64,000 nt of DNA from Nitrospira sp. GTDB taxonomy: Bacteria > Nitrospirota > Nitrospiria > Nitrospirales > Nitrospiraceae. The stretch spans positions 16,845 through 80,844 of the forward strand of contig DATIFR010000134.1 of assembly GCA_035455145.1 (NCBI GenBank). The letters are read 5' to 3'. This document shows, piece after piece, positions 35,767-59,708 of this stretch. A program made the translations under genes and the position numbers. Each line of letters begins with the position of its first letter. Position 1 is the stretch's first letter. The notes under the pieces were generated by a model. That model made no database searches. It was given only the letters and a program-made list of their open reading frames with translations, and was not told where the DNA came from.

Positions 35767-35769
35767 GTT

Positions 35770-35948
35770 GGTGAGACAGGTGCTCCCTGTGCTCGCGGAA
35801 CGCGACACGCGGGAACAATCGGATGCTTAAATCATGGGCGGTGTTCGTTCGACGCGCGCACGATGGGAGCAACCTGTCTCACCCTACAAGAAGAGCAGCT
35901 CCATTGGCCTAGGAGGAAAAGGAAAGCGAGCAAGCTTGGAAGGAGTGT
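35770..35948 (+). repeat. Structured repeat module X plus conserved 23-nt tail
   Basis: Outer stem GGTGAGACAGGT-GCTCCC / GGGAGC-A-ACCTGTCTCACC; core shared with 43084, 55183 and 57747; tail at 35926-35948. Confidence 0.85.
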
Positions 35949-36015
35949 TTGTGGGCGGAGCCGATTGAGGAGCCAAAAGAATAGGAAGTGGGTCCTGTCG
36001 CTGACCTCACAGGAA

Positions 36016-36199
36016 GCCTTCGGGTTCGGCTCACGTACCTCCCGGAGCGATCCTTTCGGGCTTCGTAGGGTGGAAGCCTTCTGGAATTCCCTCAGCCACG
36101 GTCTTCCGACCGTGGTGCTTTGGTCAGTTCCAGCTTTCCATCCCGCCTTAGCCTCGGTGGATACCTCGCTCCTCCGGTAAAGTTCGCGAGCCCGAAGGC
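36016..36199. repeat. Structured repeat family W, copy 1
   Basis: Closed by a 13-bp stem GCCTTCGGGTTCG / CGAGCCCGAAGGC; its core is homologous to 52600-52730. Confidence 0.75.
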
Positions 36200-36224
36200 G
36201 TTCCGTGAGATGAAAAGGAGTGGG

Positions 36225-36311
36225 TGGAGCGCAGGTCAGCGCCACCCGCGCTGGTGAACTCTCAATCGGCCGAAGGGGAGAAAGAAATACGAGCGAGCGT
36301 GGAGGGAGCAT
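36225..36311 (+). repeat. 3' fragment of module Z plus 23-nt tail
   Basis: GGTCAGCGCCACCCGC as in 40486-40500; tail ACGAGCGAGCGTGGAGGGAGCAT at 36289-36311. Confidence 0.75.
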
Positions 36312-36364
36312 TCAGAAGGGACAGCGGGCAGGAGTCGGTCTTTAGTCATCGAGGAAGATGATTG

Positions 36365-37828
36365 ATGCGGGAACAGCCGGTTGAGCCACATGTGTTTGTC
36401 ATTGTCGGTGGGACAGGCGATCTGACGCACAGGAAACTCTTGCCCGCTCTCTACCATCTGCGCGGTCAGGGTGTGCTGGAAAAACAGAACACGCTGATCG
36501 TCGGAGCGGCGTTGCCAGAGATGAGCGAAGAGGGGTATCGCCTCTGGGCCTACGAAGGTCTGCAGAAGTCTGGCGTGCGCCATGACAAGGAACTCAGGGC
36601 CTGGTGCGAAGCCTGTATCCATTATCAGTCCGTTCACGAGGGGAAGCCCAAGGATTTCGAAGCCTTGGCCGCCTTCATCCGGCGGTTGGAACGGTCGCGC
36701 AGCATGCCGGAAAACCGCATCTTCTACCTGGCCTTGCCGCCAGAAGTAGTCCCGAGCACCATGGAGCGGTTGGATCATACGGGACTTCTGAAGAGCCACG
36801 GCTGGGTCCGCGTCGTATTTGAAAAACCGTTTGGACACGACTTTCATTCGGCGCGGGCATTGAACACCACACTGCACCGCTACCTGGACGAATCCCAGAT
36901 CTATCGCATTGACCATTACCTGGGCAAAGAGACGGTACAGAATCTGTTGGCGTTTCGTTTTGCCAACCCGATTTTCGAGTCGCTCTGGAAGCGTGATGCC
37001 ATTGAGAGCATCGAAATCACCGTCGCGGAAGATCTCGGTGTCGAGCATCGCGGCGCCTATTACCAGCAGGCCGGTGCCCTGCGTGATATGGTGCAGAACC
37101 ATCTCACCCAGCTGATGACGGTTGTGGCCATGGAAGTACCGGTGTCGTTCGATGCGGTGGCCATCCGGAGTGAAAAACTGAAGGTCCTGCATTCTATTGC
37201 GCCGATCAACCCGCACGATGTCGTCTTCGGCCAATACACGGCCTGGAGATCCGGCAGCGTGAATATTCCTGGTTATCTCGAAGAGAAAGGCATTCCGAAG
37301 GATTCGACCACGGAGACGTTTGTGGCCTTGAAGGCGGAAATCCACAATTGGCGATGGAAGGGCGTGATGTTCTATCTGAGGACCGGCAAGCGGCTTCCGC
37401 GCAAGCTGACCCAGATTGCGGTGACGTTTCACGAAGCGCCTACGCAGGTGTTCCGTTCGCTCGATCCCGGGAGCATTCCACCCAACAAGTTGCTGGTCAC
37501 GCTGCAGCCGAGCGAAGGATTCGCGCTCTGTTTCTCCGTGAAGACGCCGGGACGCCCGTTCCGATTTACCGACCACGCACTGCAATTTAGTTATGAGGAG
37601 GCGTTTGGCGAACTGCCGGAAGCCTACGAGACGCTGCTACGCGACGTGATGATCGGTGATCAGACGCTCTTCGTCAGTGCCGAGTTTACTGAAACTGCCT
37701 GGCGTCTCTATGATCCGGTCATTGTTGGTGAACATACGGTGCACAACTATACCGCTGCGACGTGGGGGCCACGCGAAGCGGACATGCTGCTGGAACGGAA
37801 CGGACATCGGTGGCAGCTGGGATGGTAA
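36365..37828 (+). CDS. zwf: Glucose-6-phosphate 1-dehydrogenase
   Basis: GGTGDLTHRKL, EKPFG, YRIDHYLGKE, LRDMVQNH, ETFVA, RTGKRL. Confidence 0.96.
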   Translation: MREQPVEPHVFVIVGGTGDLTHRKLLPALYHLRGQGVLEKQNTLIVGAALPEMSEEGYRLWAYEGLQKSGVRHDKELRAWCEACIHYQSVHEGKPKDFEALAAFIRRLERSRSMPENRIFYLALPPEVVPSTMERLDHTGLLKSHGWVRVVFEKPFGHDFHSARALNTTLHRYLDESQIYRIDHYLGKETVQNLLAFRFANPIFESLWKRDAIESIEITVAEDLGVEHRGAYYQQAGALRDMVQNHLTQLMTVVAMEVPVSFDAVAIRSEKLKVLHSIAPINPHDVVFGQYTAWRSGSVNIPGYLEEKGIPKDSTTETFVALKAEIHNWRWKGVMFYLRTGKRLPRKLTQIAVTFHEAPTQVFRSLDPGSIPPNKLLVTLQPSEGFALCFSVKTPGRPFRFTDHALQFSYEEAFGELPEAYETLLRDVMIGDQTLFVSAEFTETAWRLYDPVIVGEHTVHNYTAATWGPREADMLLERNGHRWQLGW

Positions 37829-37877
37829 GCGTGCGATGTGCAGGGGGTAGGAGTGAAGTCATCAAGAGGAGGTTTGA

Positions 37878-38564
37878 TTGATGGGGCGTTCGATGGGCGA
37901 TCCGATACAGCGATTGATGGGTTTGATGTTCAAAGCGCATCCTTGGCACGGGGTCTCGATTGGAGACAAGGCGCCGGAGGTGGTCACGGCCTATATCGAG
38001 ATCGTGCCGACCGACACGGTAAAGTATGAGGTCGATAAGGACAGCGGCTTCCTTAAGGTCGATCGCCCGCAGCGGTTCTCAAATTTCTGTCCCGTGTATT
38101 ATGGGCTGGTGCCTCAGACCTACTGCGGCGAGAAAGTGGCAGGGCTCTTCTCCAAGCGGGCGAAGCGGAAGGGCATGGTCGGCGACCGCGATCCGCTCGA
38201 TATCTGCGTACTGACAGAAAAGACCATCCCCCACAGCGACATTCTGCTTACGGCGATTCCGATCGGCGGATTCAGCCTGGCCGACGGCGGTGAGGCGGAC
38301 GACAAGATCATTGCCGTGATGAAAGAAGATGCGGCATACGGGGACTTCACCGACATCGGAGACTGTCCGATCACGTTGATCGATCGCCTCCAGCATTATT
38401 TCCTCACCTATAAGCAAGCGCCAGGAGCGGTGCAACACAAAGTAGAAATTACCAGCGTGTACGGCCGCGACGAAGCGTTGAAGGTTATCCGTGCCAGCCA
38501 CGCCGACTATCGAGAGAAGTTCCCTGAGCTGGAATCCCTCTGGCCGAAGCAGATGGCCACCTAA
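37878..38564 (+). CDS. ppa: Family I soluble inorganic pyrophosphatase
   Basis: KAHPWHG, VKYEVDK, YGLVPQT, DRDPLDI, DDKIIAV. Confidence 0.93.
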   Translation: MMGRSMGDPIQRLMGLMFKAHPWHGVSIGDKAPEVVTAYIEIVPTDTVKYEVDKDSGFLKVDRPQRFSNFCPVYYGLVPQTYCGEKVAGLFSKRAKRKGMVGDRDPLDICVLTEKTIPHSDILLTAIPIGGFSLADGGEADDKIIAVMKEDAAYGDFTDIGDCPITLIDRLQHYFLTYKQAPGAVQHKVEITSVYGRDEALKVIRASHADYREKFPELESLWPKQMAT

Positions 38565-38591
38565 TCACAGAAAGGTCACAAATACATCCCG

Positions 38592-40340
38592 ATGAAGCAC
38601 GATCAAAACCATCCGCCCGCTGCAACCGCAATCCATGGATTCTCGCCCGGCTTCGCCGCATTGGGACTCGAAGCGTCGTTACTCACCACGCTCGAAACGC
38701 TTGGATATGAAGAGCCGACACCCATCCAGCGCGAAGCGATCCCGCCGCTTCTGGCCGGGAAGGACCTGCTCGGTCAGGCGGCAACGGGAACCGGAAAGAC
38801 CGCTGCCTTCACGCTGCCGCTCCTTCAACGGATCGCGCACGGGGCCAAGGCCAAACCGGCGGCGCTCATTCTCGTGCCGACCCGCGAGCTCGCCATTCAA
38901 GTCAGTGAGGCCGTCCAACGCTACAGTAAAGAACTGCGTACCAGCGTGTTGGCCATCTATGGCGGCCAAGCCATCGGCCCTCAGTTCCATGCATTGAAAC
39001 GGGGGGTGGATGTCGTAGTGGCGACGCCGGGGCGTGCGCTCGATCACATCAGGCGCCAAACCTTGAAGCTGATTCACGTGCAGATCGTTGTGCTCGACGA
39101 AGCGGACGAGATGCTCGACATGGGGTTCGCCGAAGATCTCGACGCCATTCTGGAGCAGACTCCCGCGACGAAGCAGACCGCCCTGTTTTCCGCAACCATG
39201 CCGACGCGCATCAAATCCATCGCGCACCGGCACCTTAAGCAGGCAGTCGAGATCACTATCGCCAAGGAACCGGTAAAAGCCGGCGCTGCGCCGCGCGTCC
39301 AGCAGACAGCCTATGTGGTCACGAGACAACATCGTGGCGCCGCACTCGTGCGCATTTTAGATATGGCGGGGCCCAAGTCTGCCCTGGTGTTTTGCCGCAC
39401 GCGCGTCGAAGTGGACGATGTCACGGCCATGCTCAATAGCCGCGGGCATCGAGCCGAAGCCATTCACGGCGGCATGAGCCAGCCCCAGCGCGATCGCGTA
39501 ATGAGCGCGTTTCGAAGCGGACAAACGGAACTCCTCGTGGCCACCGACGTGGCCGCGCGCGGTCTCGATATTCCCAGTGTCTCGCACGTCATTAATTACG
39601 ATTTGCCGTCGTCTGCCGAAGTATATGTGCACCGCATCGGGCGGACCGGCCGTGCCGGCCGCGAGGGTGCCGCCATCACGATCCTGGATCCTCGGGAGCA
39701 ACGGCTTCTCCGCAGCATCGAGCAGCACACGAAAGCCAGAGTGACGGTGGCGCCGGTCCCGTCGGTCGCAGACCTCCTCGCGAAACGACTCGAACGAACC
39801 AGGGCACTGGTCCAGGAGGCAATGCAAGCAGACGATCTTGACGGATTTAAGGGCGTCGTGAAAGCGATGGCCGCATCGGGCGATCCCATTACTGTGGCCG
39901 CCGCGGCGATGAAGCTGATCTTTCAAGAGCAGGGTGGAGAGCGGGTCGAACAGGAGATTCCTGCCATGCCGATCCCCCAGCCGGAACCCTATAGGCCGAT
40001 GCAGCGACTAACCGGCCGTCCCGATGACCGGTATCGTGGCGCACAGGCCAGATCCGGCGGGCCTCAGCCGATGGCCAGGCCTGGTCGGGGCGGACGGGAA
40101 CCAGGGATGGCGCGGGTCTATGTTGGTGCGGGACGGGAAGCCGGCATCAGGCCAGGCGATCTGGTCGGCGCCATTGCCAACGAAGCCAAAGTGAATTCGA
40201 GCATGATCGGCGCAATCCAGATCGAAGATCGCTTTTCCGTTGTGGATGTGCCGGAGGCGATGGCGCAACGAATTGTTGAAGTGCTGGGGAGGGCGAGAAT
40301 TAAGGGGCGGAAGGCGGCGGTGCGGTTGTTTAGAGAATAA
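38592..40340 (+). CDS. deaD: DEAD-box RNA helicase with a DbpA-type C-terminal RNA-binding domain (DeaD/CsdA-like)
   Basis: PTPIQ, ATGTGKT, PTRELA, TPGR, DEADEM, SAT, TDVAARGLD, HRIGRTGR; GIRPGDLVGAIANE. Confidence 0.9.
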   Translation: MKHDQNHPPAATAIHGFSPGFAALGLEASLLTTLETLGYEEPTPIQREAIPPLLAGKDLLGQAATGTGKTAAFTLPLLQRIAHGAKAKPAALILVPTRELAIQVSEAVQRYSKELRTSVLAIYGGQAIGPQFHALKRGVDVVVATPGRALDHIRRQTLKLIHVQIVVLDEADEMLDMGFAEDLDAILEQTPATKQTALFSATMPTRIKSIAHRHLKQAVEITIAKEPVKAGAAPRVQQTAYVVTRQHRGAALVRILDMAGPKSALVFCRTRVEVDDVTAMLNSRGHRAEAIHGGMSQPQRDRVMSAFRSGQTELLVATDVAARGLDIPSVSHVINYDLPSSAEVYVHRIGRTGRAGREGAAITILDPREQRLLRSIEQHTKARVTVAPVPSVADLLAKRLERTRALVQEAMQADDLDGFKGVVKAMAASGDPITVAAAAMKLIFQEQGGERVEQEIPAMPIPQPEPYRPMQRLTGRPDDRYRGAQARSGGPQPMARPGRGGREPGMARVYVGAGREAGIRPGDLVGAIANEAKVNSSMIGAIQIEDRFSVVDVPEAMAQRIVEVLGRARIKGRKAAVRLFRE

Positions 40341-40415
40341 GGAAGTGTTGTGGCGGGTCCTGTCGGTGATTGAACCCATTCGTCCTCGCTCCACCCATCC
40401 CCCAGTGGGTCCCTT

Positions 40416-40561
40416 CCGCTGCGGGCACTTGGTGAAAGCCGCGTCTCGGCGCGGCAGGGGTCGGGCGGGTGAGAAAGTTGCCCGGGTCAGCGCCACCCGC
40501 CTGTAGAGGTCGCATTTGCCGCATGAGGAAGAGGACAAACGAGCGAGCTTGGAAGGAGCAT
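40416..40561 (+). repeat. Structured repeat module Z plus 23-nt tail
   Basis: CCGCTGCGGG..CCGCGTCTCGGCGC..GGGCGGGTGAGAAAG..GCGCCACCCG shared with 55461 and 57933; tail at 40539-40561. Confidence 0.85.
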
Positions 40562-40638
40562 GTGTACCGTCAGACACGCGTATGCGAAAGTAGACCCAGC
40601 CGGTTTTGAGAACGTAGAATGTCGCGATACTGTTTCCC

Positions 40639-41373
40639 ATGCCGATCCAAACCTTTACTGCACAAGTCGACGCGATCAAAGATCTCACGCATGACGTGCG
40701 CCAGCTCGACCTGCGCCTGATTGAGCCGAACACCATCAGTTTCAAGCCGGGCCAGTTCGTCTCGTTCGAGATCCCGCAAGCCACGCCAGGCCGCTCGGTG
40801 ACGCGACCCTACTCCATTGTCTCGCAACCCAGCCGATCGGGCGGCATCACGCTGTTATTCAATCTGGTGCCAGGAGGACCTGGTTCCACCTATCTGTTCA
40901 GCCTCAAGGCAGGGGACAGGACACAGTTCAAAGGACCGGCGGGCAACTTTTATCTGCGGGAGGATCCGGGGCGCGAGCTGTTGTTCGTTGCTACCGGTAC
41001 CGGGATCGCGCCCCTCTGGTCCATGCTGCTCGCCAATGCGGAGCGCGCCGACCCAAGACCGGCGACGTTACTCTGGGGACTGCGCAGCCAGCGGGATCTG
41101 TACTACCAGAAGGAACTCGCTGGACTCGTTCGAACGAACAAGACACTGAACGCGATTACGACGCTGTCCCGACCGGAGCCTGGCTGGTCAGGCGAATCAG
41201 GCCGTGTTCTGCGGTTGATCGAATGGCAGGTCTCTTCGGTGAAGAATCTTGCCGTTTACCTCTGCGGGAACAGCGCCATGATCGTCGATGCCACGGCCCT
41301 CCTGCAGAAGAAAGGGCTCTGCCCGATCTATCGTGAGAAGTACTATGATGACAGTGGATCGCCGGAAGATTGA
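40639..41373 (+). CDS. FNR-family FAD/NAD(P)H oxidoreductase without a 2Fe-2S domain
   Basis: FKPGQFV, RPYSI, GGPGS, ATGTGIAP, YLCG. Confidence 0.9.
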   Translation: MPIQTFTAQVDAIKDLTHDVRQLDLRLIEPNTISFKPGQFVSFEIPQATPGRSVTRPYSIVSQPSRSGGITLLFNLVPGGPGSTYLFSLKAGDRTQFKGPAGNFYLREDPGRELLFVATGTGIAPLWSMLLANAERADPRPATLLWGLRSQRDLYYQKELAGLVRTNKTLNAITTLSRPEPGWSGESGRVLRLIEWQVSSVKNLAVYLCGNSAMIVDATALLQKKGLCPIYREKYYDDSGSPED

Positions 41374-41495
41374 GGGAGCCCCCCTAATTCTCCCGTGCCG
41401 CACCTGCGTCGCTATCTCAGTGGAGAGGGGAGCAGCAAGCTCGAAAGTCCACCTGTGTTGTGATGTCGCAGGACAGTCACGCGAGTGAGGTGAAG

Positions 41496-41927
41496 ATGAA
41501 AAAGCAAGCGCGCAAATCGGTCATGGTCGTCACCGGCTCCACGGCAGCCGGCTGGAGAAGGGCGGCCGAGGCGATGGCCGCGGCCTTCGACTGTGAGCTG
41601 CACCGGGTCAATCTGTCCGGGGTCGTGAGTCAGTATGTCGGTGAAACGGAAAAGCAGCTCAACCGCATCTTTGAAAAGGCCGAAGAAAGCGGGGCGATTC
41701 TGCTTTTTGAGGAAGCGGATGCGCTGTTCTGCAGGCGCAGTAAAGTCAAGGATGCGCACGACCGCTATGCGAACGTCGAAACCGCCGCGCTGTTACAGCG
41801 GATAGAAGCCTATGACGGCCTCGCCATCCTCGCGACCAACCGGAGCGCGAAGATCGATCCCGCGTGGCTCCGTCGGGCGAAGGTTGCGAAGCCGAAAGTA
41901 TCAAAGAAGAAGGCTACGGGGAGATGA
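41496..41927 (+). CDS. Isolated, degenerate AAA+ ATPase domain
   Basis: SQYVGETEKQL, FEEADALF, DAHDRYAN, ILATN; Walker A region reads GSTAAGWR, with no GKT. Confidence 0.7.
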   Translation: MKKQARKSVMVVTGSTAAGWRRAAEAMAAAFDCELHRVNLSGVVSQYVGETEKQLNRIFEKAEESGAILLFEEADALFCRRSKVKDAHDRYANVETAALLQRIEAYDGLAILATNRSAKIDPAWLRRAKVAKPKVSKKKATGR

Positions 41928-42002
41928 CGGCGGAAGCGCCTGGCTGGACCACCCCACAAAATTTATCCTGGACGCAGCGTCTCCGATGAAAGGACGAAGA
42001 CT

Positions 42003-43016: not shown

Positions 43017-43083
43017 TGGATATGTGATGTGGTCTGGTCTGGTGAGTCCCTGTGCTTGCGGAGCATCGACAATAGAATGTGAG

Positions 43084-43403
43084 AACAGCGTCCGCATGGT
43101 CCTGTGCTCCCGGAGTGCGCACGCGGGACTCATCGTATTCTCAGATTAGGGGCGGTGCTCCCTCCACGGGCGCAATTGGACCATTGCGGACGCTGTTTTC
43201 CGAGATTAAACCAGACAAGTTCGGTGGGACCATTGATATGGTGGTTGCGCGCGAAACCTTCCATCCGCACCCCTTGAACAGGAGGAGAAACGAGCGAGCT
43301 TGGAAGGAACATTATAAGGGCTCGATCCTTCATGCAAGCCGCTGAGAAAGCCTCCTCCCCCTCACTTGATGGGATAAGGGAAGAGCGAACTTGGAAGGAT
43401 CAT
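43084..43403 (+). repeat. Stacked repeat cluster: module X, then two 3' fragments of module Y, each with a tail
   Basis: X outer stem AACAGCGTCCGCA-TGGTCC / GGACCA-T-TGCGGACGCTGTT; tails at 43211 (degenerate), 43290 and 43381. Confidence 0.8.
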
Positions 43404-43520
43404 TGAGTTCGTGGATGCAATCCAGCCCGCGTGCCACGAGACAATCTTGACATCAACGCTCGGCTCCCAGTACAAAATCATGCTTTGTCTATATGGGAAT
43501 TATTCATAAAGGAATCATTC

Positions 43521-44897: not shown

Positions 44898-45148
44898 GAC
44901 ACACGTGAGTCACAGCAAGGCCCGCAGGATGAGTATCCTGCGGGCCTTGTGCTATCTGGCATCGACAACTTCAGAGACAGTTATGCCGGACAGCGGCTTC
45001 GGCATCCAATTCTGTGAGCTGCCGGATCGGGTCGCACTACCAAGCATAGGAGGGGTGTCGGGCCGATTCCGATCGTCCACACGTTGACAGCTCTGCCAGG
45101 GGATCGTAGCCTAGATTCCTCCAATCCAGTAAAACGGGAGGAACTTCC

Positions 45149-46210: not shown

Positions 46211-46320
46211 CCTTCATCAGCTTGCAGGAGTGGGCAACGCCAAACCATCCTGCTCCTGTTAATTCGGCTTTTGGAGCGGGTTGCTCCAACTGTAACTTGT
46301 GACGATGCTGGTCCCGGATA

Positions 46321-47235: not shown

Positions 47236-47286
47236 GGGACGGGAGAGTATCAGAGAGAGGGGGGAGGCGGCCAGGAGAGCAGGAAG

Positions 47287-47534
47287 AGAGGATGGAGTGC
47301 CCGCACGCTCCAGTGTCTCAGCTCGACCGCACTAAGCTTACCATCTGCTCGGCTGCGGAACTTGTTCCATCCGGGCTGCGCAGGATGGAACGGCGAACAG
47401 TCCTCGCCGTCGCGCAACGCGACCGCATCTGCTCAGCAAGTGCGGGGCCCGAGCTTTGACACAAGTCGCGTACAAAACCCTCCATCCTCTCCGCCCGGCG
47501 AGAGAAGAAAAAAGAGCAACCTTGGAGGGAGCAT
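47287..47534 (+). repeat. Structured repeat module Y plus 23-nt tail
   Basis: Outer stem AGAGGATGGAG / CTCCATCCTCT; high similarity to 51969-52216; tail at 47512-47534. Confidence 0.88.
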
Positions 47535-47684
47535 TGAAATGTGTTTTTGCGGAAGGAGCAGACTGAGCCGATGACGAAGCTTAGGTCAACCTCTTGATCT
47601 CGCCTTCTGAAGAGACGAGCGGAATGAGAGACCCTTCAGCTCACTTGCGAGAAAAGCTCACACACAAGCCTGGAAGCAGCACCA

Positions 47685-47924: not shown

Positions 47925-47983
47925 GATATGACCCTCCTGTGATGTTCGAACGCTCACTGCAATCTTCCTCACGCCCCTTCCGG

Positions 47984-48430: not shown

Positions 48431-48679
48431 GAGGACCCTCGTTCCAAAGGATCCGCATCCAAATGGTGATGCCTGACGTTAGTGTGTCCGGTGTGGGAGT
48501 GAAGGGGGCTGCAGCGAAGTCCGTCATGCAGGATGACAGAACGTAGCATGCAGAAGAGGCGGCAGCCACCGCCACTGGAACGTCAGACCAGCATGTTACG
48601 CCGGTGGAGATTCTTGGTCAACCGTCTCTCGATGAGCCAAGGGAGCCAGTTTCCAGGGATTGCTCGGCGCCATGGAGCA

Positions 48680-48702
48680 ACGAGCGGGCTTGGAAAAAGC
48701 AT
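48680..48702 (+). repeat. Isolated 23-nt tail motif
   Basis: ACGAGCGGGCTTGGAAAAAGCAT, without a recognisable X, Y or Z module upstream. Confidence 0.65.
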
Positions 48703-48786
48703 CCGATGCACGCGCCGCACGCAACTCCCTCATGATGTACTCATCGGAGCATATCGTGCTTGAGTCAGCTTCAAGTCGTCTTCATA

Positions 48787-49761: not shown

Positions 49762-49769
49762 GACGGTTC

Positions 49770-50738: not shown

Positions 50739-50751
50739 CGAGAGGAGAGCC

Positions 50752-51954: not shown

Positions 51955-51968
51955 GATCCAGGTAGAAA

Positions 51969-52216
51969 GGGCGTGGATGAAACGCCTGCACGCTCCGATG
52001 CCTCAGATCGACCGCACTAAGCTTCGCACCTGCTCGGCTGCGGAACTTGTTCCATCCTTTGCGATGCGGGATGGAACGTCGAACAGTCCTCGCCGTCGCG
52101 GAACGCGACCGCCGCTGCCCGGCAAGTGCGGAGTCCCGAGCTTCGGTACAAGTCGCGCGCAGGACTTTCCATCCCCGCCACTTGGGGAGAAAAACGAGCG
52201 AGCTCTGAGGGATCAT
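51969..52216 (+). repeat. Structured repeat module Y plus 23-nt tail
   Basis: Aligns with 47287-47534 (TCGACCGCACTAAGCTT, CTGCTCGGCTGCGGAACTTGTTCCATCC, GAACAGTCCTCGCCGTCGCG); tail at 52194-52216. Confidence 0.88.
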
Positions 52217-52277
52217 TCTAGTTGGATGAGGTGTGCGGTAAAGATGGTGATCATCAGATGAGAAAGGAGGGCAGGCC

Positions 52278-52592
52278 ATGGCGTGGGGACCTGATGCGAA
52301 TACAGAAGATGAACTGGAAAAGCTGGCAGCTGTGCGTGCGTATCTTCACGAACAGTTCCCGGGTGCCTCGATTCGTGATTCGTACGATGCCGGCAGGATA
52401 GCGGAGGTGTTTCGGATCGAAACCGACGGCGTCGAGGGGCTGCGCGATGCGGTCGTCTCGACCGAATTTCTCGACGAGTATCCGCCTGAAAAAATGGGAA
52501 AGGCGTTGACCGGCTTGCGGGTTGCGGAACACCTCCGCTCAGCGAAGGGCAAGGAGGTGCTGGTCACAAGTTGGGGTGTAGAAGAAAAGTAG
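52278..52592 (+). CDS. Hypothetical protein
   Basis: Strong RBS (AAGGAGG), 104-aa acidic globular ORF. Confidence 0.65.
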   Translation: MAWGPDANTEDELEKLAAVRAYLHEQFPGASIRDSYDAGRIAEVFRIETDGVEGLRDAVVSTEFLDEYPPEKMGKALTGLRVAEHLRSAKGKEVLVTSWGVEEK

Positions 52593-52599
52593 GGTTGAA

Positions 52600-52730
52600 T
52601 CCGTTCGGCCTTCGCTTATCGACCTCTGGGCGCGATCCTTCCGGATGCGACCGGGCGGAAGTCCTTCTGGAATTCCCGCAGCCACGGTTGTGCCAACCGT
52701 GGCTGCGTCTGTCAGTTCCACCTTTCCTTC
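52600..52730. repeat. Structured repeat family W, copy 2
   Basis: GCGATCCTT..CCTTCTGGAATTCCC.CAGCCACGGT..ACCGTGG..GTCAGTTCCA.CTTTCC shared with 36050-36150. Confidence 0.75.
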
Positions 52731-52910
52731 CCGTTCACACCCCGCTTCTTGTTCAGGTCCATGAGCGCATAACTTTTGTGCCGGCCCCCGAGCAGCAAGT
52801 CAACGTGCACATTCACCTCATCGTCGTCTCTCCCATCTTTTCCTGTGCGCAGGCGAGCCGGCCTGTTAGGATGCGCTCGCGCGGGTGAATCGTCGAGCCC
52901 GCATGATCGC

Positions 52911-54152
52911 ATGACACTCTCACAGCCATCAGCCAGACCGCGACAAGCCGCGGTCCTCTTCATTCTCATCACGGTCATGCTCGACGTCCTGTCGTTCGGA
53001 ATCATTATTCCCGTCCTCCCGAAGCTCGTCGAAAACTTCATGTCCGGCGACACGGCGCAGGCGGCGGCGATCTATGGCTTCATGGGCATGGCCTGGGCGT
53101 TGATGCAGCTGCTCTGCTCGCCGATCCAGGGTGCACTCTCCGACCGGTTCGGGCGAAGACCGGTCGTGCTGCTCTCCAACTTCGGCCTCGGCCTCGATTA
53201 CATCCTCATGGCGCTCGCGCCGGACATCACCTGGCTCTTTGCGGGCCGGGTCATTTCGGGTATCGCCTCGTCGAGCTTCAGCACTGCTGGCGCCTATATC
53301 GCCGACGTCACCCCGCCGGAGGAACGGGCCGCCGGTTTCGGCATGATCGGCGCAGCGTTCGGCTTAGGGTTTGTGCTCGGTCCGGCGGTAGGCGGACTGT
53401 TAGGGGCGAGCGATCCGCACCTGCCGTTCTGGGGCGCAGCCGCGACGAGTCTCGTGAACGCCTGTTACGGTTACTTTGTCCTGCCGGAATCGCTTCCGCG
53501 CGAGAAACGGATGAACTTTTCCTGGAAGCGCGCGAACGCGGTCGGTTCGCTCGTGCTGCTGCGCTCGCATCATGAACTGTTCGGCCTCTCTGCCGTGGCG
53601 TTTCTCAACTATCTCGCCCATGCGGTGTTACCCAGCACCGCGGTGCTCTATGTCGGCTATCGCTACGGATGGGGATCGACGGCCGTCGGCTTCATGCTCG
53701 CCGCTGCCGGCATCAACGCCATGATCGTGCAGGGACTGTTGATGAAACCGCTCACCGCGCGGTTCGGGGAACGAAAGACCTTGCTCGCGGGCTTGTGCTG
53801 CGGGGCGATCGGGTTTTGCGTCTACGGCGTCGCCACCGACGGATGGATCTATTGCGCCGGCATTCCCATCATGGCCTTCTGGGGGCTCGCCGGTCCGTCG
53901 GCGCAGGGGCTCATGACCAACCGCGTGAGTGCCTCTGAACAAGGGCAACTCCAAGGAGCCATCGCGGGGTTGTCCGGCATCGCCGGTCTGATCGGGCCCG
54001 GTCTCTTCACGCAAACATTTGCGCTGTTCATCGGGCCCCGCGCCGGTTGGCATCTCCCGGGCGCGCCGTTTCTCCTTGCGTCATTCTTATTACTGCTGGG
54101 AATGGCGTTAGCCTGGCGGGCGACGAGGGGAGGGCATGAGAAGACGGGATGA
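52911..54152 (+). CDS. TCR/Tet-family MFS efflux transporter
   Basis: LDVLSFGIIIPVLP, GALSDRFGRRPV (motif A), GFVLGPAVGG, QGQLQG. Confidence 0.9.
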   Translation: MTLSQPSARPRQAAVLFILITVMLDVLSFGIIIPVLPKLVENFMSGDTAQAAAIYGFMGMAWALMQLLCSPIQGALSDRFGRRPVVLLSNFGLGLDYILMALAPDITWLFAGRVISGIASSSFSTAGAYIADVTPPEERAAGFGMIGAAFGLGFVLGPAVGGLLGASDPHLPFWGAAATSLVNACYGYFVLPESLPREKRMNFSWKRANAVGSLVLLRSHHELFGLSAVAFLNYLAHAVLPSTAVLYVGYRYGWGSTAVGFMLAAAGINAMIVQGLLMKPLTARFGERKTLLAGLCCGAIGFCVYGVATDGWIYCAGIPIMAFWGLAGPSAQGLMTNRVSASEQGQLQGAIAGLSGIAGLIGPGLFTQTFALFIGPRAGWHLPGAPFLLASFLLLLGMALAWRATRGGHEKTG

Positions 54153-54215
54153 ATTGCTCCGCGGGCTTCCGCAAGGATATTGAGCCTGCACGCAAGGCGT
54201 GATCGCTGATCGTGG

Positions 54216-55106
54216 TCAGCGTGGACTGACGAGCCTGGGCTGTTTGCCGCCTGATGCCAGTTGGGCGAACTGCTGCTTCATCGCATTGACCCGGATTAGA
54301 TAGGCGCGCACGTCGTGGTCGCCGCACCGCTGGTGGGGGCTCAGCCTGAAGCGGCGCGCGGCATAGGCCTGGCCGGCCCCGGCACCGCAAAGGTGAATGA
54401 CCGCGGCCAGATCCTGTTTGTTCCGGAGCGTGACAGTGCCGCTCCGTCTCTGTCCGACCGCACTCACAACTTGGCGATCGAGCAGTGCCGAAGTCAATTC
54501 GATGGCATGGCTCGGGAGGACGCGCTGGTAGAGGTTGTTGAACCAGCAGGATTGCATGTCGTGCCATGGGCCGTCCTCGACCACGACATGGTCGTGGATG
54601 CAGTAGCGTTTGGCTTCCTGAAAGGTACCATCGGTAATCTGGTACATGCCGACCGCACTCGACGCCGGTCGGTACCACTCCAAAGGATTCCACGACGGCT
54701 GCCATCTCCAGTAAGTTCGCGCCACCGGGTTTCCCGCGCCCTCGACCTGCGCCAGCGCCGCCAATAACTCAGGCGTGATGACCGCTGTCGCATGTTCGCG
54801 GAAGAGCAATCCATATTCTTTCCACGTTTCGGCCGGGCTCTTGTTCAGTGTACGGTCCAAGGGAAAGAGGATTTCGCTCGGCTTGTAGTACGCGTGATAG
54901 GTCCAGTTGACGCCGAGCCAGAACAGGAGGATCGCCGATAAAATCACGACGGCACGCACCGACGGCGGCGAGGCCAGCACGGCCTTCAGAATTCTACGGG
55001 ATGTTTTCCAGCGGGCGCGCAGGTAACGCCAGAAGGTTTTGAGGGTGCGGCGACGGCGGCGGGAGGGACGGCGACGGGAGGAGCGGAGGTTAGGGCGAGA
55101 GGACAT
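54216..55106 (-). CDS. Membrane-anchored lytic transglycosylase-like (SLT/lysozyme-fold) protein
   Basis: Arg-rich N-terminus plus TM; ALAQVEG (catalytic Glu) and SSAVGMYQI motifs. Confidence 0.75.
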   Translation of the reverse strand: MSSRPNLRSSRRRPSRRRRRTLKTFWRYLRARWKTSRRILKAVLASPPSVRAVVILSAILLFWLGVNWTYHAYYKPSEILFPLDRTLNKSPAETWKEYGLLFREHATAVITPELLAALAQVEGAGNPVARTYWRWQPSWNPLEWYRPASSAVGMYQITDGTFQEAKRYCIHDHVVVEDGPWHDMQSCWFNNLYQRVLPSHAIELTSALLDRQVVSAVGQRRSGTVTLRNKQDLAAVIHLCGAGAGQAYAARRFRLSPHQRCGDHDVRAYLIRVNAMKQQFAQLASGGKQPRLVSPR

Positions 55107-55130
55107 GGGGACAATATATATGAAAATGGT

Positions 55131-55850
55131 GGGAGGGTGGCCTGATCGGTCCCTGTGCTCGCCGAACGCGACACATTGAGAAGGAAGGAGGTCCGTTGGT
55201 CGCCTGTGCTCGCGCAACGCGGCACGCGGGATCTATCGAATTATCACGTAAAGGGCGGTGCTCGTTGGACGCGCGCACTGGGAGACCAATCGGCCCACCT
55301 TCCGAGAAGAGAGGGCAAGCGAGCTTGGAAGGACCATTGTATATTTCACGCGCGCACAATGGAACCGATTCAGGCCACCTCGAAGCCCGAGTCCCCATGA
55401 GGGTGAAAGAGGGAAACGAGCAAGCTTGGGGGGACCATTTTATTTAATAGTGGGGCCCTCCCGCTGCGGGCGCTTGGGAAAGACCGCGTCTCGGCGCAGT
55501 AGGGATTGGGCGGGTGAGAAAGTCGCTCGGGTCGGCGCCACCCGTGAGAATGAGGATTCGCAACTCAGGGGGTGGGGGAGGAACGACGAGCGAGCTTGGG
55601 AGGAACACGAGGATGGTGAGCCTGCTCGCTCCGGCGAGTGGTTAAGCCGCATGGCCCTATCGCTGCTTGGCTGCGCAACTTGTTCCGTCCTGGACTTCGT
55701 TCGAACGGAACTTCGGACAATGCTCGCCATCGCTTTCAGCGACCGCATCGACTCGACCATGCAACCCCTCGCAAGTCGCAGCCAGCCCCACCATCCTCAG
55801 TAGGCGAATAGGGAATGTCACGCGCACAATGGGACCGATTCAAATCTCAA
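55131..55850 (+). repeat. Largest stacked/nested repeat cluster (X split around X, then Z, Y and an X fragment)
   Basis: Tails at 55315, 55416 and 55586; modules identified by alignment to the other copies. Confidence 0.85.
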
Positions 55851-55953
55851 CCTTGAGAGGAGAAGAAAGAATCCGCCGGTGGAAGCTCTGCCGGCTACCA
55901 TCTGCAGTGGAAGAAGCCGGCGCGACTGCCGAATGGATGATCCTATGGTCGTC

Positions 55954-56100
55954 TTAGCGGAAAGATTTGCGTCGGCTCACCTGGCGACGCGCATCTCGGT
56001 TTACGGCTTTGTCTCGAATAAATGCACCGATGAGCAGGGCGGGGATTGAAAGAAGCCAGAGATACCATGGGGCCCACAATGTCGCGTCGTGCATGATCAT
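55954..56100 (-). CDS. Small membrane peptide
   Basis: AAAGGAG RBS; single TM followed by a basic tail. Confidence 0.45.
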   Translation of the reverse strand: MIMHDATLWAPWYLWLLSIPALLIGAFIRDKAVNRDARRQVSRRKSFR

Positions 56101-56426
56101 TCTCCTTTCGTGATACCAGTCGACTACGCAATCACCGTACCAACGTGAGAACACGCCCCATTCCCCGTTTATTCACCTTGATATGCGATTAGGACAACGA
56201 TCCGGAGCCCGGATCTTGTGGTGGGCGATGAGGCACACAACGCACAACGGCGTTGCACAAACAACACGGATCATGACGATCCACCACACTGCCTCCACTG
56301 CGGTGCATTTTTCTGCAGTGCATTCGTTCACAGGCTTCAACCGGACCGGTTGACTCCATGGGGGAAAGCTGAGTAGCGTGGCATTGCCTACAGGGGACTC
56401 GTCCCATCCAACGACTAGAGTTTCCC

Positions 56427-57110
56427 ATGCCACAGAATCGCTGCGCCATGATCGTCGTGGTCGGATTGCTTGTACTCACCGCCTCCTGGTCGGCCGCGCA
56501 GCAGCCTGCCTCACAAGCAGAATCGAGTCTCGAACCGGAGTTCCGGCAACTGCGTTCGAAACTCAGCGCCATGCCGGAATTCAGCGGGACCGATGCCGAA
56601 TCAAAGTTTCGTCTGGCTGAAGAACTCGCCCATCGCGGAGACGTGCAGGGTGCCGTGGAAACCTATCGCGCCGCGATTCATCTCAAACCCGACTGGCCGG
56701 ATCCCTACCGGGGACTCGGTCAGGTGCTACTCGACCATCACGACTATGCCGAGGCGATCCAGGCGTTGCAGACCAGCATTCGCTTAGGTCGCGACGATCA
56801 TCACGCTTTCTATTGGCTGGGACGCGCCTATATGGGGAAGCACGATCTGGCTGCGGCGGCAGTCGCCCTCGAGCGCGCGACGGAACTCAAGCCCGACGAT
56901 GCCGAAACTTTTGCGGACCTCGGCCTTGTTCGAATGACGCAGGGCGATGATGTCGCCGCGGAACAGGCGCTCAAGCGGTCCATTCAGTTGAAGCCGGATT
57001 ACGCCGAGGCCCACCAGCTGCGCGAACAACTGGCCAAGGCCAAAGGCAACAGGGAGACAGTCAAAGAAGCGGGCATGGCGCGACTCAGGAGTGTATTTGA
57101 TCGGGAATAA
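56427..57110 (+). CDS. Exported TPR protein
   Basis: Signal peptide and four TPR-like repeats (AIHLKPDWPDPYRGLG, ATELKPDDAETFADLG). Confidence 0.85.
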   Translation: MPQNRCAMIVVVGLLVLTASWSAAQQPASQAESSLEPEFRQLRSKLSAMPEFSGTDAESKFRLAEELAHRGDVQGAVETYRAAIHLKPDWPDPYRGLGQVLLDHHDYAEAIQALQTSIRLGRDDHHAFYWLGRAYMGKHDLAAAAVALERATELKPDDAETFADLGLVRMTQGDDVAAEQALKRSIQLKPDYAEAHQLREQLAKAKGNRETVKEAGMARLRSVFDRE

Positions 57111-57111
57111 A

Positions 57112-57681
57112 TTAGGGACGCCAGTCCGGCTGGGCATTGGAGGTCGATAATACGATCGCATGTATGGCCAACTGATGGCCGTCCGGCTGTTCCCAGGTCT
57201 TGAGCAGGAGTTGATGCATCTCCCGCACCTCGATGGCGCCGAGCGAGACCCAACCGGGTGTGGACGGCAGTTCCCCCTTCACACAAGTCTTCGCGCAGAG
57301 ATTGATCCAGGGATGGCCGGGATCTCCGCTGCCATAGGCCCATGCCGCATAGGCTCCCGCAGGCAACTGTGAGGTCGTCCGAATCGGCGAGACGCCCGGA
57401 AGAGGCTGGCGAAACATCACCACACGATCCGCGTTCTCGCGCGGCACACCGCAACGGTCCCCCTTCGCATAGACCCACAACGTGTATTCGCCGGAATTGG
57501 CCTTGCAGCCTTCGAAGGCTACGTCCGTTCCACCCTTCCAATCGGAAGCGCGAAAGATTTGCGTGGAGGGAGGTGCTGGCACATCAGCGGCGAGAAGTGG
57601 TGAGGGCCAGAATGAAAGCACAAGGGCGAGGTATGTCGTGACAAGAGTCAGAGTGGCGGTGCGGAAGTGAAAGGAAGGCAT
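57112..57681 (-). CDS. Hypothetical exported protein with paired cysteines
   Basis: Signal peptide (MPSFHFRTATLTLVTTYLALVLSFWPSPLLA), beta-rich composition. Confidence 0.6.
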   Translation of the reverse strand: MPSFHFRTATLTLVTTYLALVLSFWPSPLLAADVPAPPSTQIFRASDWKGGTDVAFEGCKANSGEYTLWVYAKGDRCGVPRENADRVVMFRQPLPGVSPIRTTSQLPAGAYAAWAYGSGDPGHPWINLCAKTCVKGELPSTPGWVSLGAIEVREMHQLLLKTWEQPDGHQLAIHAIVLSTSNAQPDWRP

Positions 57682-57740
57682 GAAGAGTTGTAGCGAAGTA
57701 GAGAAGAAAAGGTCAATGCGGGGAGTGTGGCGAGTGAGGT

Positions 57741-58110
57741 GGGAGGGTGGCCTGATCGGTCCCTGTGCTCGCGGAACGCGACACACGGGAACAAACAGAT
57801 TGATAAATTATTGGCGGTGTTCGTTCGACGCGCGCACGATGGGACCGATTCAGGCCACTTTGAAGCCCGTCTCCGCATGAGGGGGAGAGATAACGAGCAA
57901 GCTTGGAAGGACCATTTTATAGTGGATCAATTCCGCTGCGGGTGCTTGGTGAAAACCGCGTCCCGGCGCGGGTGGGCTGGGTGGGTGAGAAAGCCGCCCG
58001 AGTCGGCGCCACCCGCTAAGAGAGAGTCAACCCTTGCCCAGGGGGAGGAGCGGAACGAGCAAGCTTGGAGGGATCATCAAAAGTTCGACGCGCGCACGTT
58101 TGAGGCCAAT
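57741..58110 (+). repeat. Stacked repeat cluster: X plus tail, Z plus tail, X 3' fragment
   Basis: X stem GTGGCCTGA-TCGGTCCC / GGGACCGA-T-TCAGGCCAC; tails at 57893 and 58055. Confidence 0.88.
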
Positions 58111-59645: not shown

Positions 59646-59708
59646 GGGCGGGTCCCATCGCCAACGCCGCTCATTCATCCTTGTCCACGCATCCCCAATG
59701 GGTCCCTT

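Follow-up and report, generated by a model that had tools for sequence, protein, structure and literature searches.

Among the described repeat systems closest to the one reported here, the REP/BIME elements of Escherichia coli have as their mobiliser RAYT, a Y1 HUH transposase, and the IS200/IS605-derived PATEs move by ssDNA transposition through the Y1 enzyme TnpA. For the BOX elements of Streptococcus pneumoniae (boxA-boxB(n)-boxC), and for the NIME (RS units bounded by the short conserved dRS3) and Correia elements of Neisseria, a mobiliser is either not established or acts in trans. Eukaryotic SINEs join diverse heads to a LINE-derived 3' tail; we know of no retroposition of this kind in bacteria. 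Here we describe a family of non-coding, non-autonomous interspersed repeats that is specific to the Nitrospiraceae and is built from few structured modules. In other bacteria, REP/BIME, BOX and MITE elements are similar to these repeats.

The DNA that we analysed (referred to as the window) is a stretch of 64,000 nucleotides of an ordinary Nitrospira chromosome. An earlier reading of the sequence alone (the sequence-only reading) had listed 13 copies of a 23-nt tail, and the motif proved to be real: ACGAGCRAGCTTGGARGGANCAT is present with 0-3 mismatches at all 13 listed positions, from 35926 to 58077, and on the + strand only. (Note that 0.01 copies with at most 3 mismatches are expected by chance, and that 13 copies were reached in 0 of 100 shuffles.) The sequence at 43211 that had been called a degenerate copy has 7 mismatches to ACGAGCRAGCTTGGARGGANCAT, and no tail copy was found in positions 1-35700 or 58130-64000 of the window. 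The elements of the window are as follows.

35733-35756 and 35951-35974, + strand: left and right copies of a 24-nt direct duplication, GTGGGCGGRGCCGATTGAGGAGCC, flanking the X insertion
35757-35950, + strand: X-type hairpin, linker and tail (35926-35948), inserted into a conserved 65-aa ORF 10 nt short of its original stop
35988-36311, + strand: Z-type chassis (outer stem about 35988-36006 with 36233-36250) with a W insert of about 225 nt, linker and tail (36289-36311)
40353-40561, + strand: Z with Z-core (GGGCGGGTGAGAAAGT, 40463-40478), followed by a linker and a perfect tail (40539-40561); deaD and an FNR-like gene flank the element
43035-43233, + strand: composite X-type hairpin and the degenerate tail (43211-43233)
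43234-43312, + strand: short unit of CCTTCCATCC, purine run and perfect tail (43290-43312)
43313-43403, + strand: short unit ending in a tail (43381-43403); the sigma-70 promoter of gt2 (TTGACA near 43447) lies some 44 nt further downstream
47285-47534, + strand: Y and tail (47512-47534), the structure being better supported on the - strand
48653-48702, + strand: decayed remnant and tail (48680-48702, 3 mismatches)
51970-52216, + strand: Y and tail (52194-52216), directly 3' of the E2 acyltransferase gene
52602-52736, + strand: second W copy without tail, a recurrence of the W insert in 35988-36311
55128-55175, + strand: left arm of an outer X hairpin (right arm at 55348-55379)
55179-55337, + strand: inner X hairpin with its linker and tail (55315-55337), nested within the outer X at its tip
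55348-55438, + strand: right arm of the outer X, linker and tail (55416-55438)
55445-55608, + strand: Z and tail (55586-55608)
55609-55880, + strand: third Y copy (to about 55800), then a right-arm remnant and purine run without tail
57728-57915, + strand: X hairpin, linker and perfect tail (57893-57915)
57917-58077, + strand: Z and perfect tail (58055-58077)
58081-58123, + strand: orphan right-arm fragment behind the last tail

All tail copies had been called intergenic, and all do lie outside the reading frames taken as genes except the first; the element at 35757-35950 now stands in place of the final codons of the conserved 65-aa ORF, homologs of which show a normal C-terminus (...GEWAGPIEEPKE). 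A Pfam scan of the 30 larger ORFs of the window revealed no transposase, RT or integrase, in agreement with the sequence-only reading. When genomes beyond the window were searched with a looser tail pattern, at least 120 genome loci were recovered, approximately 110 of them from Nitrospiraceae or Nitrospirota; the family is absent from 16-21 kb of several related Nitrospira contigs. The modules gave no match to a known family in Rfam, even at E up to 5, and no match to the repeats was found in the literature. The family is Nitrospira-specific and apparently undescribed so far.

Several kinds of structured module carry one common terminal block, which closes many units and is a non-palindromic sequence of roughly 35-40 nt composed of a purine run, ACGAGCRAGCTTGGARGGANCAT and T-T-r-w-A. 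The purine-rich stretch that had been noted before the tail is evident in 180 copies: between positions -9 and -3, purines make up a fraction of 0.84-0.94. Most positions of the tail contain about 1.7-2.0 bits of information, and no compensatory changes were found between the block and candidate pairing partners. Because the block varies little and covaries with no partner, it is probably read by sequence rather than by base-pairing, which makes it a candidate protein recognition site. An AT-rich pentanucleotide adjoins the block even where nothing else follows.

The modules X, Y and Z of the sequence-only reading exist and fold stably, although their extents differ from those proposed (Z begins at 40353 and not at about 40404) and there are more than three types, since W and the small Z-core have to be added. 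X, a hairpin some 110 nt long and nearly a perfect palindrome, contains the conserved cores CTGTGCTCGCGSAACGCG and TCGTTSGAYGCGCGCA and is also found flipped relative to the tail or without one. Y is a multi-stem element of about 215 nt with conserved unpaired blocks, and Z is a chassis with an outer stem; neither is a simple palindrome. The element at 35988-36311 is orthologous to shorter elements in the loci L206 and L207, and its Z outer stem covaries among the three orthologs, which together with the 28 of 39 pairs of Y that are compensated argues that structure has been selected. For X and Y the better fold is on the strand opposite to that of the tail (in the window, the strand antisense to nearly all genes), whereas Z folds better on the tail strand, so that no single active strand is obvious. 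(Note that the asymmetry of X is small, averaging +2 kcal/mol with 6% G-T pairs.) Should structure in RNA or ssDNA be what counts, the supposed 3' tail may really be a 5' head.

Modules are found inserted in the hairpin tips of other modules and also stacked head to tail. Such stacking, as described in the sequence-only reading, extends to sampled Nitrospira DNA, in which 99 of the 197-198 tails scored are followed within about 55 nt by another right-arm core; new units adjoin the end of the preceding block, and tandem arrays have a period of 85-100 nt. The polarity noted in the sequence-only reading, with copies that keep only the tail side, is also real. In about 1.1 Mb we counted 364 copies of the right-arm motif, 210 tails and 163 left arms, a ratio of right to left arms of about 2:1 when all are counted and about 5:1 for orphans, and the right-arm-only units are mostly not explained by nesting (91 as against 8). 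The unit of the window that most clearly looks truncated, 55348-55438, is by contrast the right half of a host hairpin that a nested element has split from its left half (55128-55175). Junctions fall at hairpin tips, where apical sequence is lost. The end away from the block is truncated to a variable extent, the junction distance lying between 1 and 37 nt (peaks: 11, 14 and 21). The commonest junction, CAT-TTATA-TCGTTCGA..., is itself conserved across species, which accords better with modular inheritance or site-specific joining than with random truncation.

Presence/absence polymorphism at orthologous sites, which the sequence-only reading had made a check on mobility, was observed. The X at 35757-35950 is missing from its ortholog L206; the site of the remnant at 48653-48702 is empty in L091, holds a type A element in L026 and holds a nest in L042; and the omt-gt2 spacer differs between the window, L128 and L134. 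Further ortholog pairs also show gain or loss. Orthologous sites that are empty or differently occupied between species indicate gain and loss of elements. Elsewhere a copy persists from one species to another while its stems change in a compensatory manner, and at shared sites the dominant type is, as judged by eye, conserved above the flanking coding DNA, an observation that might just as well reflect a host function. As a rule the elements lack long target duplications: flanking direct repeats of at least 8 nt occur at chance level, in 1 of 29 solitary elements, and that one is the first copy of the window, the one clean recent insertion, with its 24-nt duplication.

These findings very probably reflect a mobile mosaic repeat family, one that, as first proposed, is multicopy, non-coding and lineage-restricted and combines unrelated structured modules with one conserved terminal block. 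A second reading is that the hairpins, transcribed together with adjacent genes, are RNA elements with a host function, namely 3'-end or intercistronic stabilisers or terminators as for REP and BOX. The block would then serve an RNA-binding protein or RNase as its site of binding or processing, and copy number would be a product of selection as well as mobility. The complex Y, the persistence of orthologous copies and the many elements that by eye start 0-10 nt past the stop codon of a co-oriented gene would suit such a role, as would an approximately 2:1 excess of co-orientation with both neighbouring genes. That bias, however, is too slight for a strict tie to transcription, and some 40% of copies run antisense to at least one neighbouring gene. 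The X and Y structures favour the antisense strand, the tail near gt2 sits upstream of gt2's own promoter, promoter-like or terminator-like sites are not enriched at the elements, orthologous sites hold different modules or nothing, and Rfam is silent; we consider this role unlikely. We are similarly sceptical that the units are classical or nested MITEs, that is, internally deleted DNA-transposon derivatives moved as dsDNA by DDE cut-and-paste, with the arms as terminal inverted repeats and the tail as a passenger or remnant. The palindromic X with its slight strand asymmetry and both orientations, the nesting typical of MITEs and the AT-rich boundary are what MITEs would give, yet the conserved unit is asymmetric with a one-sided tail, right arms predominate, target duplications are at chance, Y and Z are not simple palindromes and the sampled loci yielded no transposase with matching ends.

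SINE-like retroposition (TPRT), or one-ended rolling-circle transposition of the IS91/ISCR type, with the tail recognised in cis by an RT or Y2-HUH enzyme acting in trans, was the mechanism favoured by the sequence-only reading. It would account for a constant end-block common to unrelated modules, for variable truncation of the other end, for the largely un-nested right-arm-only units and for the 24-nt duplication. The chance level of duplications overall, the conserved junction, the fragment that is a split host and the folding of X and Y on the opposite strand count against it. So does a search for the enzyme: no RT, HUH or IS110 gene adjoins a tail in the window or among 795 ORFs of tail-bearing loci, no RT or HUH gene neighbours a tail in about 1.6 Mb, those 795 ORFs contain no recurrent transposase family, and tblastn of E. 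coli RayT against 1.63 Mb returned nothing below E = 0.1. We thus regard such a mechanism as highly improbable. Hardly more credible to us is the absence of any dedicated mobility, with ancient intergenic palindromes amplified and reshuffled by host processes alone, namely slippage during replication, breakage and repair of hairpin tips, and ectopic conversion between the common cores. Apical loss at hairpin tips, tandem arrays and conserved cores that could serve as recombination substrates are compatible with these processes. In 64 of 110 units, versus 34 +/- 4 when shuffled, the variable tail position N carries the same base as the position aligned to it in the right arm before it, a result (uncorrected for kinship) that is compatible with local conversion. 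Host processes alone, however, cannot seed new unrelated intergenic sites or the 3' end of a gene, and different occupants of one orthologous site point to independent arrivals.

Our tentative preference, which we would put somewhat short of an even chance, is for a new non-autonomous mosaic family mobilised in trans by a host enzyme acting on folded ssDNA. The hairpin modules would supply secondary structure in DNA (or RNA) and the block a protein-read site, and a single- or low-copy enzyme encoded by the host would act on them with a logic like that of REP/RAYT or IS200/IS605. Hairpin tips, and the position directly beyond an existing block, would be the preferred sites for new units, yielding both nests and head-to-tail arrays, and homologous recombination between common cores would later reshuffle the modules. 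Insertion of the ssDNA type is consistent with the lack of general duplications of at least 8 nt, the AT-rich pentanucleotide at the block, units that abut the previous block, the modest co-orientation with genes and the 105 of 148 tails that lie on the locally G-rich strand (a GC-skew proxy for replication direction that is confounded with gene orientation). Several results stand against an HUH enzyme specifically, which we hold to be possible although rather doubtful. The RayT search of the 1.63 Mb yielded no Y1/RAYT-like gene, and the 795 ORFs no recurrent transposase family. We saw neither a conserved GTAG nor a canonical subterminal hairpin that keeps one short spacing from the end of the block, the modules differ in their better-folding strand, and the first element has its 24-nt duplication, which HUH transposition does not yield.

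Like REP/BIME elements, the Nitrospira repeats are intergenic hairpins in hundreds of copies, mosaics of palindromic units and conserved non-palindromic motifs that form arrays, often just past stop codons and with no target duplication (in Nitrospira, none that is general). Their hairpins measure about 110 nt, however, as against 20-40 nt for REP, and they possess a multi-stem Y and an asymmetric block of 35-40 nt common to unrelated modules, with neither the conserved GTAG nor, in the sampled DNA, a RAYT match. With BOX and NIME/Correia they share a modular, lineage-specific and intergenic character, stem-loops and, as proposed here, a mobiliser in trans, but the sequences differ, the short repeat is one-sided with fixed polarity, modules nest in hairpin tips and the TA duplication of Correia elements is lacking. 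PATEs are likewise non-autonomous, with DNA secondary structure, a strand bias, insertion beside a short AT-rich word without target duplication (again, not general in Nitrospira) and possible head-to-tail stacking if the element end recreates the target; the Nitrospira elements differ in that no subterminal hairpins at canonical distances were identified, no tnpA or tnpB was detected nearby, and the modules favour different strands. Unrelated structured heads on one terminal block, and a polar excess of block-retaining units, recall SINEs, whereas at the sampled loci a partner RT and general variable target duplications are lacking, the junctions are largely discrete and conserved, and two of the modules have their structures on the strand opposite the tail.

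The repeats studied here form a family of non-autonomous hairpin elements that is specific to Nitrospiraceae, modular and nested in build, with an asymmetric end-block in common. The 23-nt tail at the heart of this block, ACGAGCRAGCTTGGARGGANCAT, is present in 13 copies in the window (with at most 3 mismatches), every one of them on the plus strand and together spanning 35926-58077, whereas only 0.01 copies are expected by chance and a count of 13 was never attained in shuffled sequence. The tail copies listed in a sequence-only reading of this DNA are thus real, although the degenerate copy placed at 43211, when that position was examined, proved to have 7 mismatches to the 23-mer. The X, Y and Z modules described 5' of the tails were retrieved as the same families by repeat finding, and the base pairing ascribed to them was borne out in that a very stable fold was computed for every putative element. 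A motif scan of the whole window confined the signature sequences of the family to 35.7-58.1 kb.

The window has the character of an ordinary bacterial chromosome, with a G+C content of 52-63% and a GC skew that is positive all along. Its larger ORFs were assigned with Pfam as follows:
Cobalamin synthesis, chemotaxis, fatty-acid and LPS-export genes
HrpB, glucose-6-phosphate dehydrogenase, pyrophosphatase and DeaD
An FNR-like reductase, an O-methyltransferase and a family-2 glycosyltransferase
An aldo-keto reductase, a 2-oxoacid dehydrogenase E1/E2 set, an MFS transporter and a patatin-like protein

In agreement with the sequence-only reading, the 30 window ORFs scanned against Pfam yielded no transposase, reverse transcriptase or integrase. 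There are no tRNA genes in the window, and the elements match no known RNA family, since a search against Rfam gave 0 matches at gathering thresholds across the whole window and nothing relevant at E<=5 within 35500-58400. Note that tandem repeats of other kinds occur elsewhere in the window. Two 93-nt repeats (85% identical) at 13698-13883 lie within an ORF of 492 aa with a response-regulator domain (12858-14336), in which they encode a repeated coiled-coil-like ELE.LLKQEREQ segment. Close to the window end, two 75-nt repeats (83% identical) at 63763-63912 are found near CCACC-rich short repeats at 62813-63599, which suggests a gene for a repetitive protein.

A check of related genomes for the tail, as had been proposed, was made by searching a one-genome-per-species collection with the relaxed pattern AGCRAGCTTGGRRGGANCA, which at least 120 stretches matched. 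About 110 among the matches listed came from organisms named Nitrospira, Nitrospiraceae, Nitrospirales or Nitrospirota, including Ca. N. defluvii, N. lenta and comammox-type MAGs; the few non-Nitrospirota matches among those listed were without the typical context and resemble chance hits. Tails are carried by both strands in these loci. When relatives were retrieved through the glycosyltransferase gene gt2, tails were seen only in the closest contigs, L126, L128 and L134, and none was present within 16-21 kb of several Nitrospira-like contigs with 75-77% protein identity. We found no published account of the repeats in literature searched by taxon and keyword and by sequence strings.

Comparison of 180 copies indicated that the conserved block exceeds 23 nt and measures roughly 35-40 nt. 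In particular, a purine run stands just 5' of the tail (purine fraction 0.84-0.94 at positions -9 to -3), and an AT-rich T-T-r-w-A stands just 3' of it, in stacked and solitary copies alike. That sequence conservation in the block is high, uniform and without covariation points to its probable recognition by a protein. The only variable position of the tail carries the same base as the position aligned with it in the right arm before it in 64 of 110 cases, against 34 +/- 4 after shuffling, a procedure that ignores relatedness among the copies.

What most often lies 5' of the tail is the right arm of the X module, a long imperfect palindrome with arms of about 45 nt. The dominant cross-species element reads GGAGGGGATGGAGCCTGATGATCTTCTGTGCTCGCGCAACGCGCGGCCTCAGAAGGCCCTCGTTGGACGCGCGCAGTGGAAGATCAATCAGCCCCCATCCCT-GAAGAGATA-ACGAGCGAGCTTGGAGGGATCAT; the X copies of the window are related to it, and the X hairpin falls into subfamilies whose differences are matched between both arms. 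Y is no simple palindrome: 11 copies from 9 sources align at 53% identity with conserved blocks, and the alignment supports a multi-stem structure. In Z, an outer stem formed by GGGTCCTGTCG... paired with ...CGCCACCCGC encloses variable contents, often a Z-core of about 55 nt containing GGGCGGGTGAGAAAGT that is also present within X right arms and in one Y copy. X, Y and Z are accordingly real, but the number of modules does not stop at three, since a further one, W, occupies the element at 35988-36311, has a second copy at 52602-52736 and is also found in other genomes.

The modules differ in the strand that folds better. For X, the tail strand is less stable by a mean of 2 kcal/mol, the opposite strand being better in 70% of 109 copies. 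For Y, the opposite strand reaches -112.8 kcal/mol as compared with -99.5 kcal/mol for the tail strand, consistently so in 10 of 11 copies; on the opposite strand its consensus fold contains 39 pairs (28 compensated; -27.2 kcal/mol), among them a U-G pair kept in 8 of the 11 copies, whereas on the tail strand it contains 31 pairs (20 compensated; -18.4 kcal/mol). For Z, the tail strand is the more stable in 8 of 10 copies. Moreover, X is flipped relative to the tail in contig L126 and occurs without a tail in contig L128. These differing strand preferences, together with the flipped and tailless copies, argue that X, Y and Z behave as separate entities, each with its own polarity, that have been joined to a common block.

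The tails are likewise mixed in their orientation relative to genes. With crude ORF calls, 122 tails lie outside called ORFs. Of these, 41 point in the same direction as both flanking genes and 21 against both, while the flanking genes diverge around another 24 and converge on 18; thus, a strict cis-regulatory role on one transcript is unlikely. The locally G-rich strand holds 105 tails and the other strand 43 (13 of 13 are on the G-rich strand in the window), an excess that fits a replication-linked bias, though it is confounded with gene strand. The last tail 5' of gt2 is followed, approximately 44 nt further on, by the conserved TTGACA-N17-TAnnnT promoter of gt2 itself. Note that the longest gt2 ORF begins with a GTG at 43431 and shows homology to relatives only from residue 26; because the promoter (at about 43447) falls inside the supposed 5' end of the gene (43431-43510), the true start is probably further downstream.

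Copies of the family are frequently nested and stacked. One X hairpin of the window, near-identical to the intact copy at 57738-57863, has its arms at 55128-55175 and 55348-55379, and between them lies a complete inner X that carries a tail of its own (55179-55337). The seemingly truncated copy at 55348-55438 is therefore a split host. Nests are also frequent in other loci, where the dominant element often directly follows ...GCTCGCGGAAC of another left arm or where a second element lies exactly within the apical loop of the dominant one. We considered whether every 3' fragment could be a host split by a nested insertion, as holds for 55128-55438, but among 99 stacked tails (those with a right-arm core next) an unmatched left arm lies 5' in only 8. 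Since about 1.1 Mb contains 364 right arms and 163 left arms (and 210 tails), and nesting explains few of these cases, units that retain the tail side truly predominate. The polar excess of copies that keep only their 3' part thus holds as had been claimed, apart from the one window case just described. The junction from a tail to the next unit measures 1-37 nt, with peaks at 11, 14 and 21, and the commonest, CAT-TTATA-TCGTTCGA, is conserved across species. In locus L060 (JBBRRK010000079.1, minus strand, about 2930-4883), the apical loop of a hairpin repeat holds an IS3-like element with an OrfA-like product of 139 aa, an OrfB-like product of 376 aa and TG...CA ends, its family having been read by eye from the translations; this insertion suggests that other mobile DNA, too, inserts preferentially at hairpin tips.

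The elements come and go at intergenic sites, and some are retained under structural constraint. One such site adjoins orf65 (35569-35766), a 65-aa ORF for a conserved Nitrospira protein that usually ends ...GEWAGPIEEPKE. In locus L206, a single tailed Z-type element and then zwf come after orf65 (89% identical at the protein level), whereas in the window an extra X with a tail (35757-35950) is inserted 10 nt 5' of the old orf65 stop codon. A 24-nt duplication flanks this insertion, and the displaced end of orf65 (...EEPKE*) persists 3' of it, so that the repeat rewrote the C-terminus of orf65 in this genome. The Z-type elements after orf65 in the window, L206 and L207 are orthologs whose interiors have been exchanged and whose outer stems covary (GCTGACC/GGTCAGC, GTAGACCAG/CTGGTCTAC and GCCAATC/GATTGGC). 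Note that orf65 itself (MAMYQWTTTKPTEAGWYWFRG...GEWAGPIEEPGE) is a member of a family of small proteins that is well conserved, lacks a Pfam domain and gave 177 homologs at E<=1e-3, the named ones nearly all from Nitrospira, and that its usual neighbours are hrpB and a DUF6714 gene.

A second site follows conserved sequence ending ...GGAGCCAG(G/T)TT. Whereas L091 has nothing there, the window has a decayed remnant with a tail (48653-48702), L026 a complete dominant-type element and L042 a nest that belongs to another subfamily. This hot-spot of repeat insertion falls exactly at the end of a conserved stretch of about 170 nt (48480-48652), 5' of the E1 dehydrogenase gene, that shows approximately 80-85% identity and few indels among the window and these three loci; it has no Pfam or Rfam assignment and could be a small gene or an unrecognised RNA. 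Further pairs of filled and empty sites were found, with flanks too divergent for the exact ends to be read. The proposed comparison of orthologous sites therefore shows that occupancy differs, as at the X of 35757-35950, absent from L206, and at the site empty in L091. Target duplications, which were to be sought there too, are at the level of mismatched controls for lengths of at least 8 nt, the only clear case (1 of 29 solitary elements) being the window 24-mer at 35757-35950. Gene order also differs among related Nitrospira: the window has orf65-zwf-ppa-deaD-fnr-aaa-omt-gt2, L128 has omt-gt2-zwf, L207 has orf65-ppa and L149 has gt2-fnr. The junctions of gene order often carry repeats among these contigs, and the repeat-dense segment (35.7-58.1 kb) may be prone to rearrangement.

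In an attempt to identify a mobilizing partner, we clustered 795 ORFs of tail-bearing loci and found no recurrent mobility gene among them; the check for such a gene alongside the tails was thus negative. Judged by eye, the largest ORF family near tails resembles sensor kinases and the second an artefactual ORF over the W repeat. Intervals in which two arms stand far apart hold ordinary genes, plus the IS3-like insertion of L060. A tblastn search with E. coli RayT of 1.63 Mb of sampled Nitrospira DNA gave nothing below E = 0.1. No partner reverse transcriptase was found in the 30 window ORFs, in ORFs running from the reverse-complemented tail or in the recurrent ORF families, and no Y2 HUH transposase was seen in the scanned window ORFs or sampled loci. 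Nor did the sampled loci hold a parent IS with matching termini, the only IS among them, that of L060, having unrelated TG...CA ends.

Several other identities for the block were entertained. As a Shine-Dalgarno sequence with a start codon, it has a GGAGG-like core followed by CAT, with no start at a workable distance; gene starts in the window lie 27-146 nt from tails. As a sigma-70 or sigma-54 promoter, it has unsuitable hexamer spacing, GG-N10-GC is absent and a promoter scan shows no enrichment. The reverse-complemented tail (ATGNTCCYTCC...) might have begun a peptide or transposase gene, but the frames it opens are short or of low complexity and its variable sites are non-synonymous; on neither strand does the block begin a reading frame. 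The consensus of the block is complementary to portions of both arms of the hairpin, and the tail could in consensus pair with the start of the right arm (CTCGTT/AACGAG) or with an upstream CCATCC, but every variant breaks the pair and there is no covariation. Local alignment does not mark the tail as a degenerate copy of the right arm (p ~0.08), and a duplex of left arm and tail (p ~0.03) is suggestive only. Finally, an integron attC or cassette array is contradicted by element ends without RYYYAAC ... GTTRRRY core sites, and no integrase is present in the ORFs scanned.

We reasoned that an enzyme reading the block would mobilize the elements in trans, acting on folded single-stranded DNA, and that recombination between common cores would follow. 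This route is favoured by the lack of general long target duplications, by the AT-rich word at the boundary, by the stacking of new units exactly past the block, and by the strand bias together with the dependence on hairpins. We hold it with low confidence, because no enzyme was found, the strand preferences of the modules are mixed and a single 24-nt duplication is present. The sequence-only reading had instead proposed SINE-like or rolling-circle mobilization; the polar asymmetry on which it drew is real and leaves that mechanism a small probability, but the mechanism has no positive support beyond that asymmetry.

Two bolder readings, which we judge to be quite improbable, are that the block is a portable handle by which one enzyme moves unrelated modules or else that Y represents a new class of functional RNA. 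The former case would call for a trans-acting Nitrospira protein of the HUH, IS110-like or reverse-transcriptase type whose link to the block has yet to be made, and would amount to a bacterial equivalent of SINE/LINE-style parasitism or else to a new system of single-stranded DNA transposition. In the latter, which concerns Y on account of its size (about 215 nt), its 28 compensated pairs and its best fold opposite the tail strand, the RNA could be, for example, a guide- or bridge-type RNA that remains from a nuclease or recombinase gene now lost or distant.

Nitrospira are the main nitrite oxidizers and complete ammonia oxidizers of soils, waters and wastewater plants, and their genomes are known mostly as fragmented MAGs. 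Hundreds of nested repeats may help explain the contig breaks. L001 and L002, Logan short-read contigs of the same strain that carry the zwf of the window, terminate 16 nt 5' of the zwf start codon, in a unique spacer about 37 nt after the nearest tail; that they end in spacer just past elements hints that the repeats fragment short-read assemblies. The repeats also affect annotation, through spurious ORF calls over elements and the altered C-terminus of one real gene, and they mark intergenic sites at which gene order differs between species. A catalogue of the modules would improve both annotation and strain typing. Moreover, the end-block offers a concrete sequence with which to find the protein that reads it; if that protein were the mobilizing enzyme, it would show that one recognition handle can carry very different structured cargos.

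The family can be compared with several known classes of element. REPs and REPINs are short, imperfect intergenic palindromes with a GTAG-type tetranucleotide at the foot, and their RAYT gene is typically flanked by repeats. The Nitrospira repeats resemble them as intergenic hairpins in many copies, but have arms (about 45 nt) much longer than those of classical REPs and show no invariant GTAG in 180 tail contexts and 71 dominant-type copies, among which GCAGTRG is confined to some subfamilies. MITEs have terminal inverted repeats, a target-site duplication of fixed length and a parent IS sharing their termini; here the X arms are inverted repeats, but the conserved unit runs on asymmetrically through linker and tail, Y and Z are not simple palindromes, and flanking repeats of at least 8 nt are not in excess. 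The PATEs of IS200/IS605 insert 3' of a conserved tetra- or pentanucleotide without duplication and show an orientation bias relative to replication; beside the Nitrospira block, T-T-r-w-A is enriched and long duplications are absent, and 105 of 148 tails are on the locally G-rich strand, a figure confounded with gene orientation. SINEs have a constant 3' end with variable 5' truncation and an autonomous partner reverse transcriptase with the same tail; here right-arm-only units predominate and junctions measure 1-37 nt, yet there are dominant conserved junction classes and one split host and, unlike with target-primed reverse transcription, variable-length target duplications accompany only 1 of 29 solitary elements. 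IS91 and ISCR elements are defined by a Y2 HUH transposase with oriIS and terIS ends. Since the repeats do not show all the defining features of any one named family, we file them in the general class and in no single family; in kind, they sit alongside REP/BIME, BOX, NIME/Correia and MITE/PATE elements.
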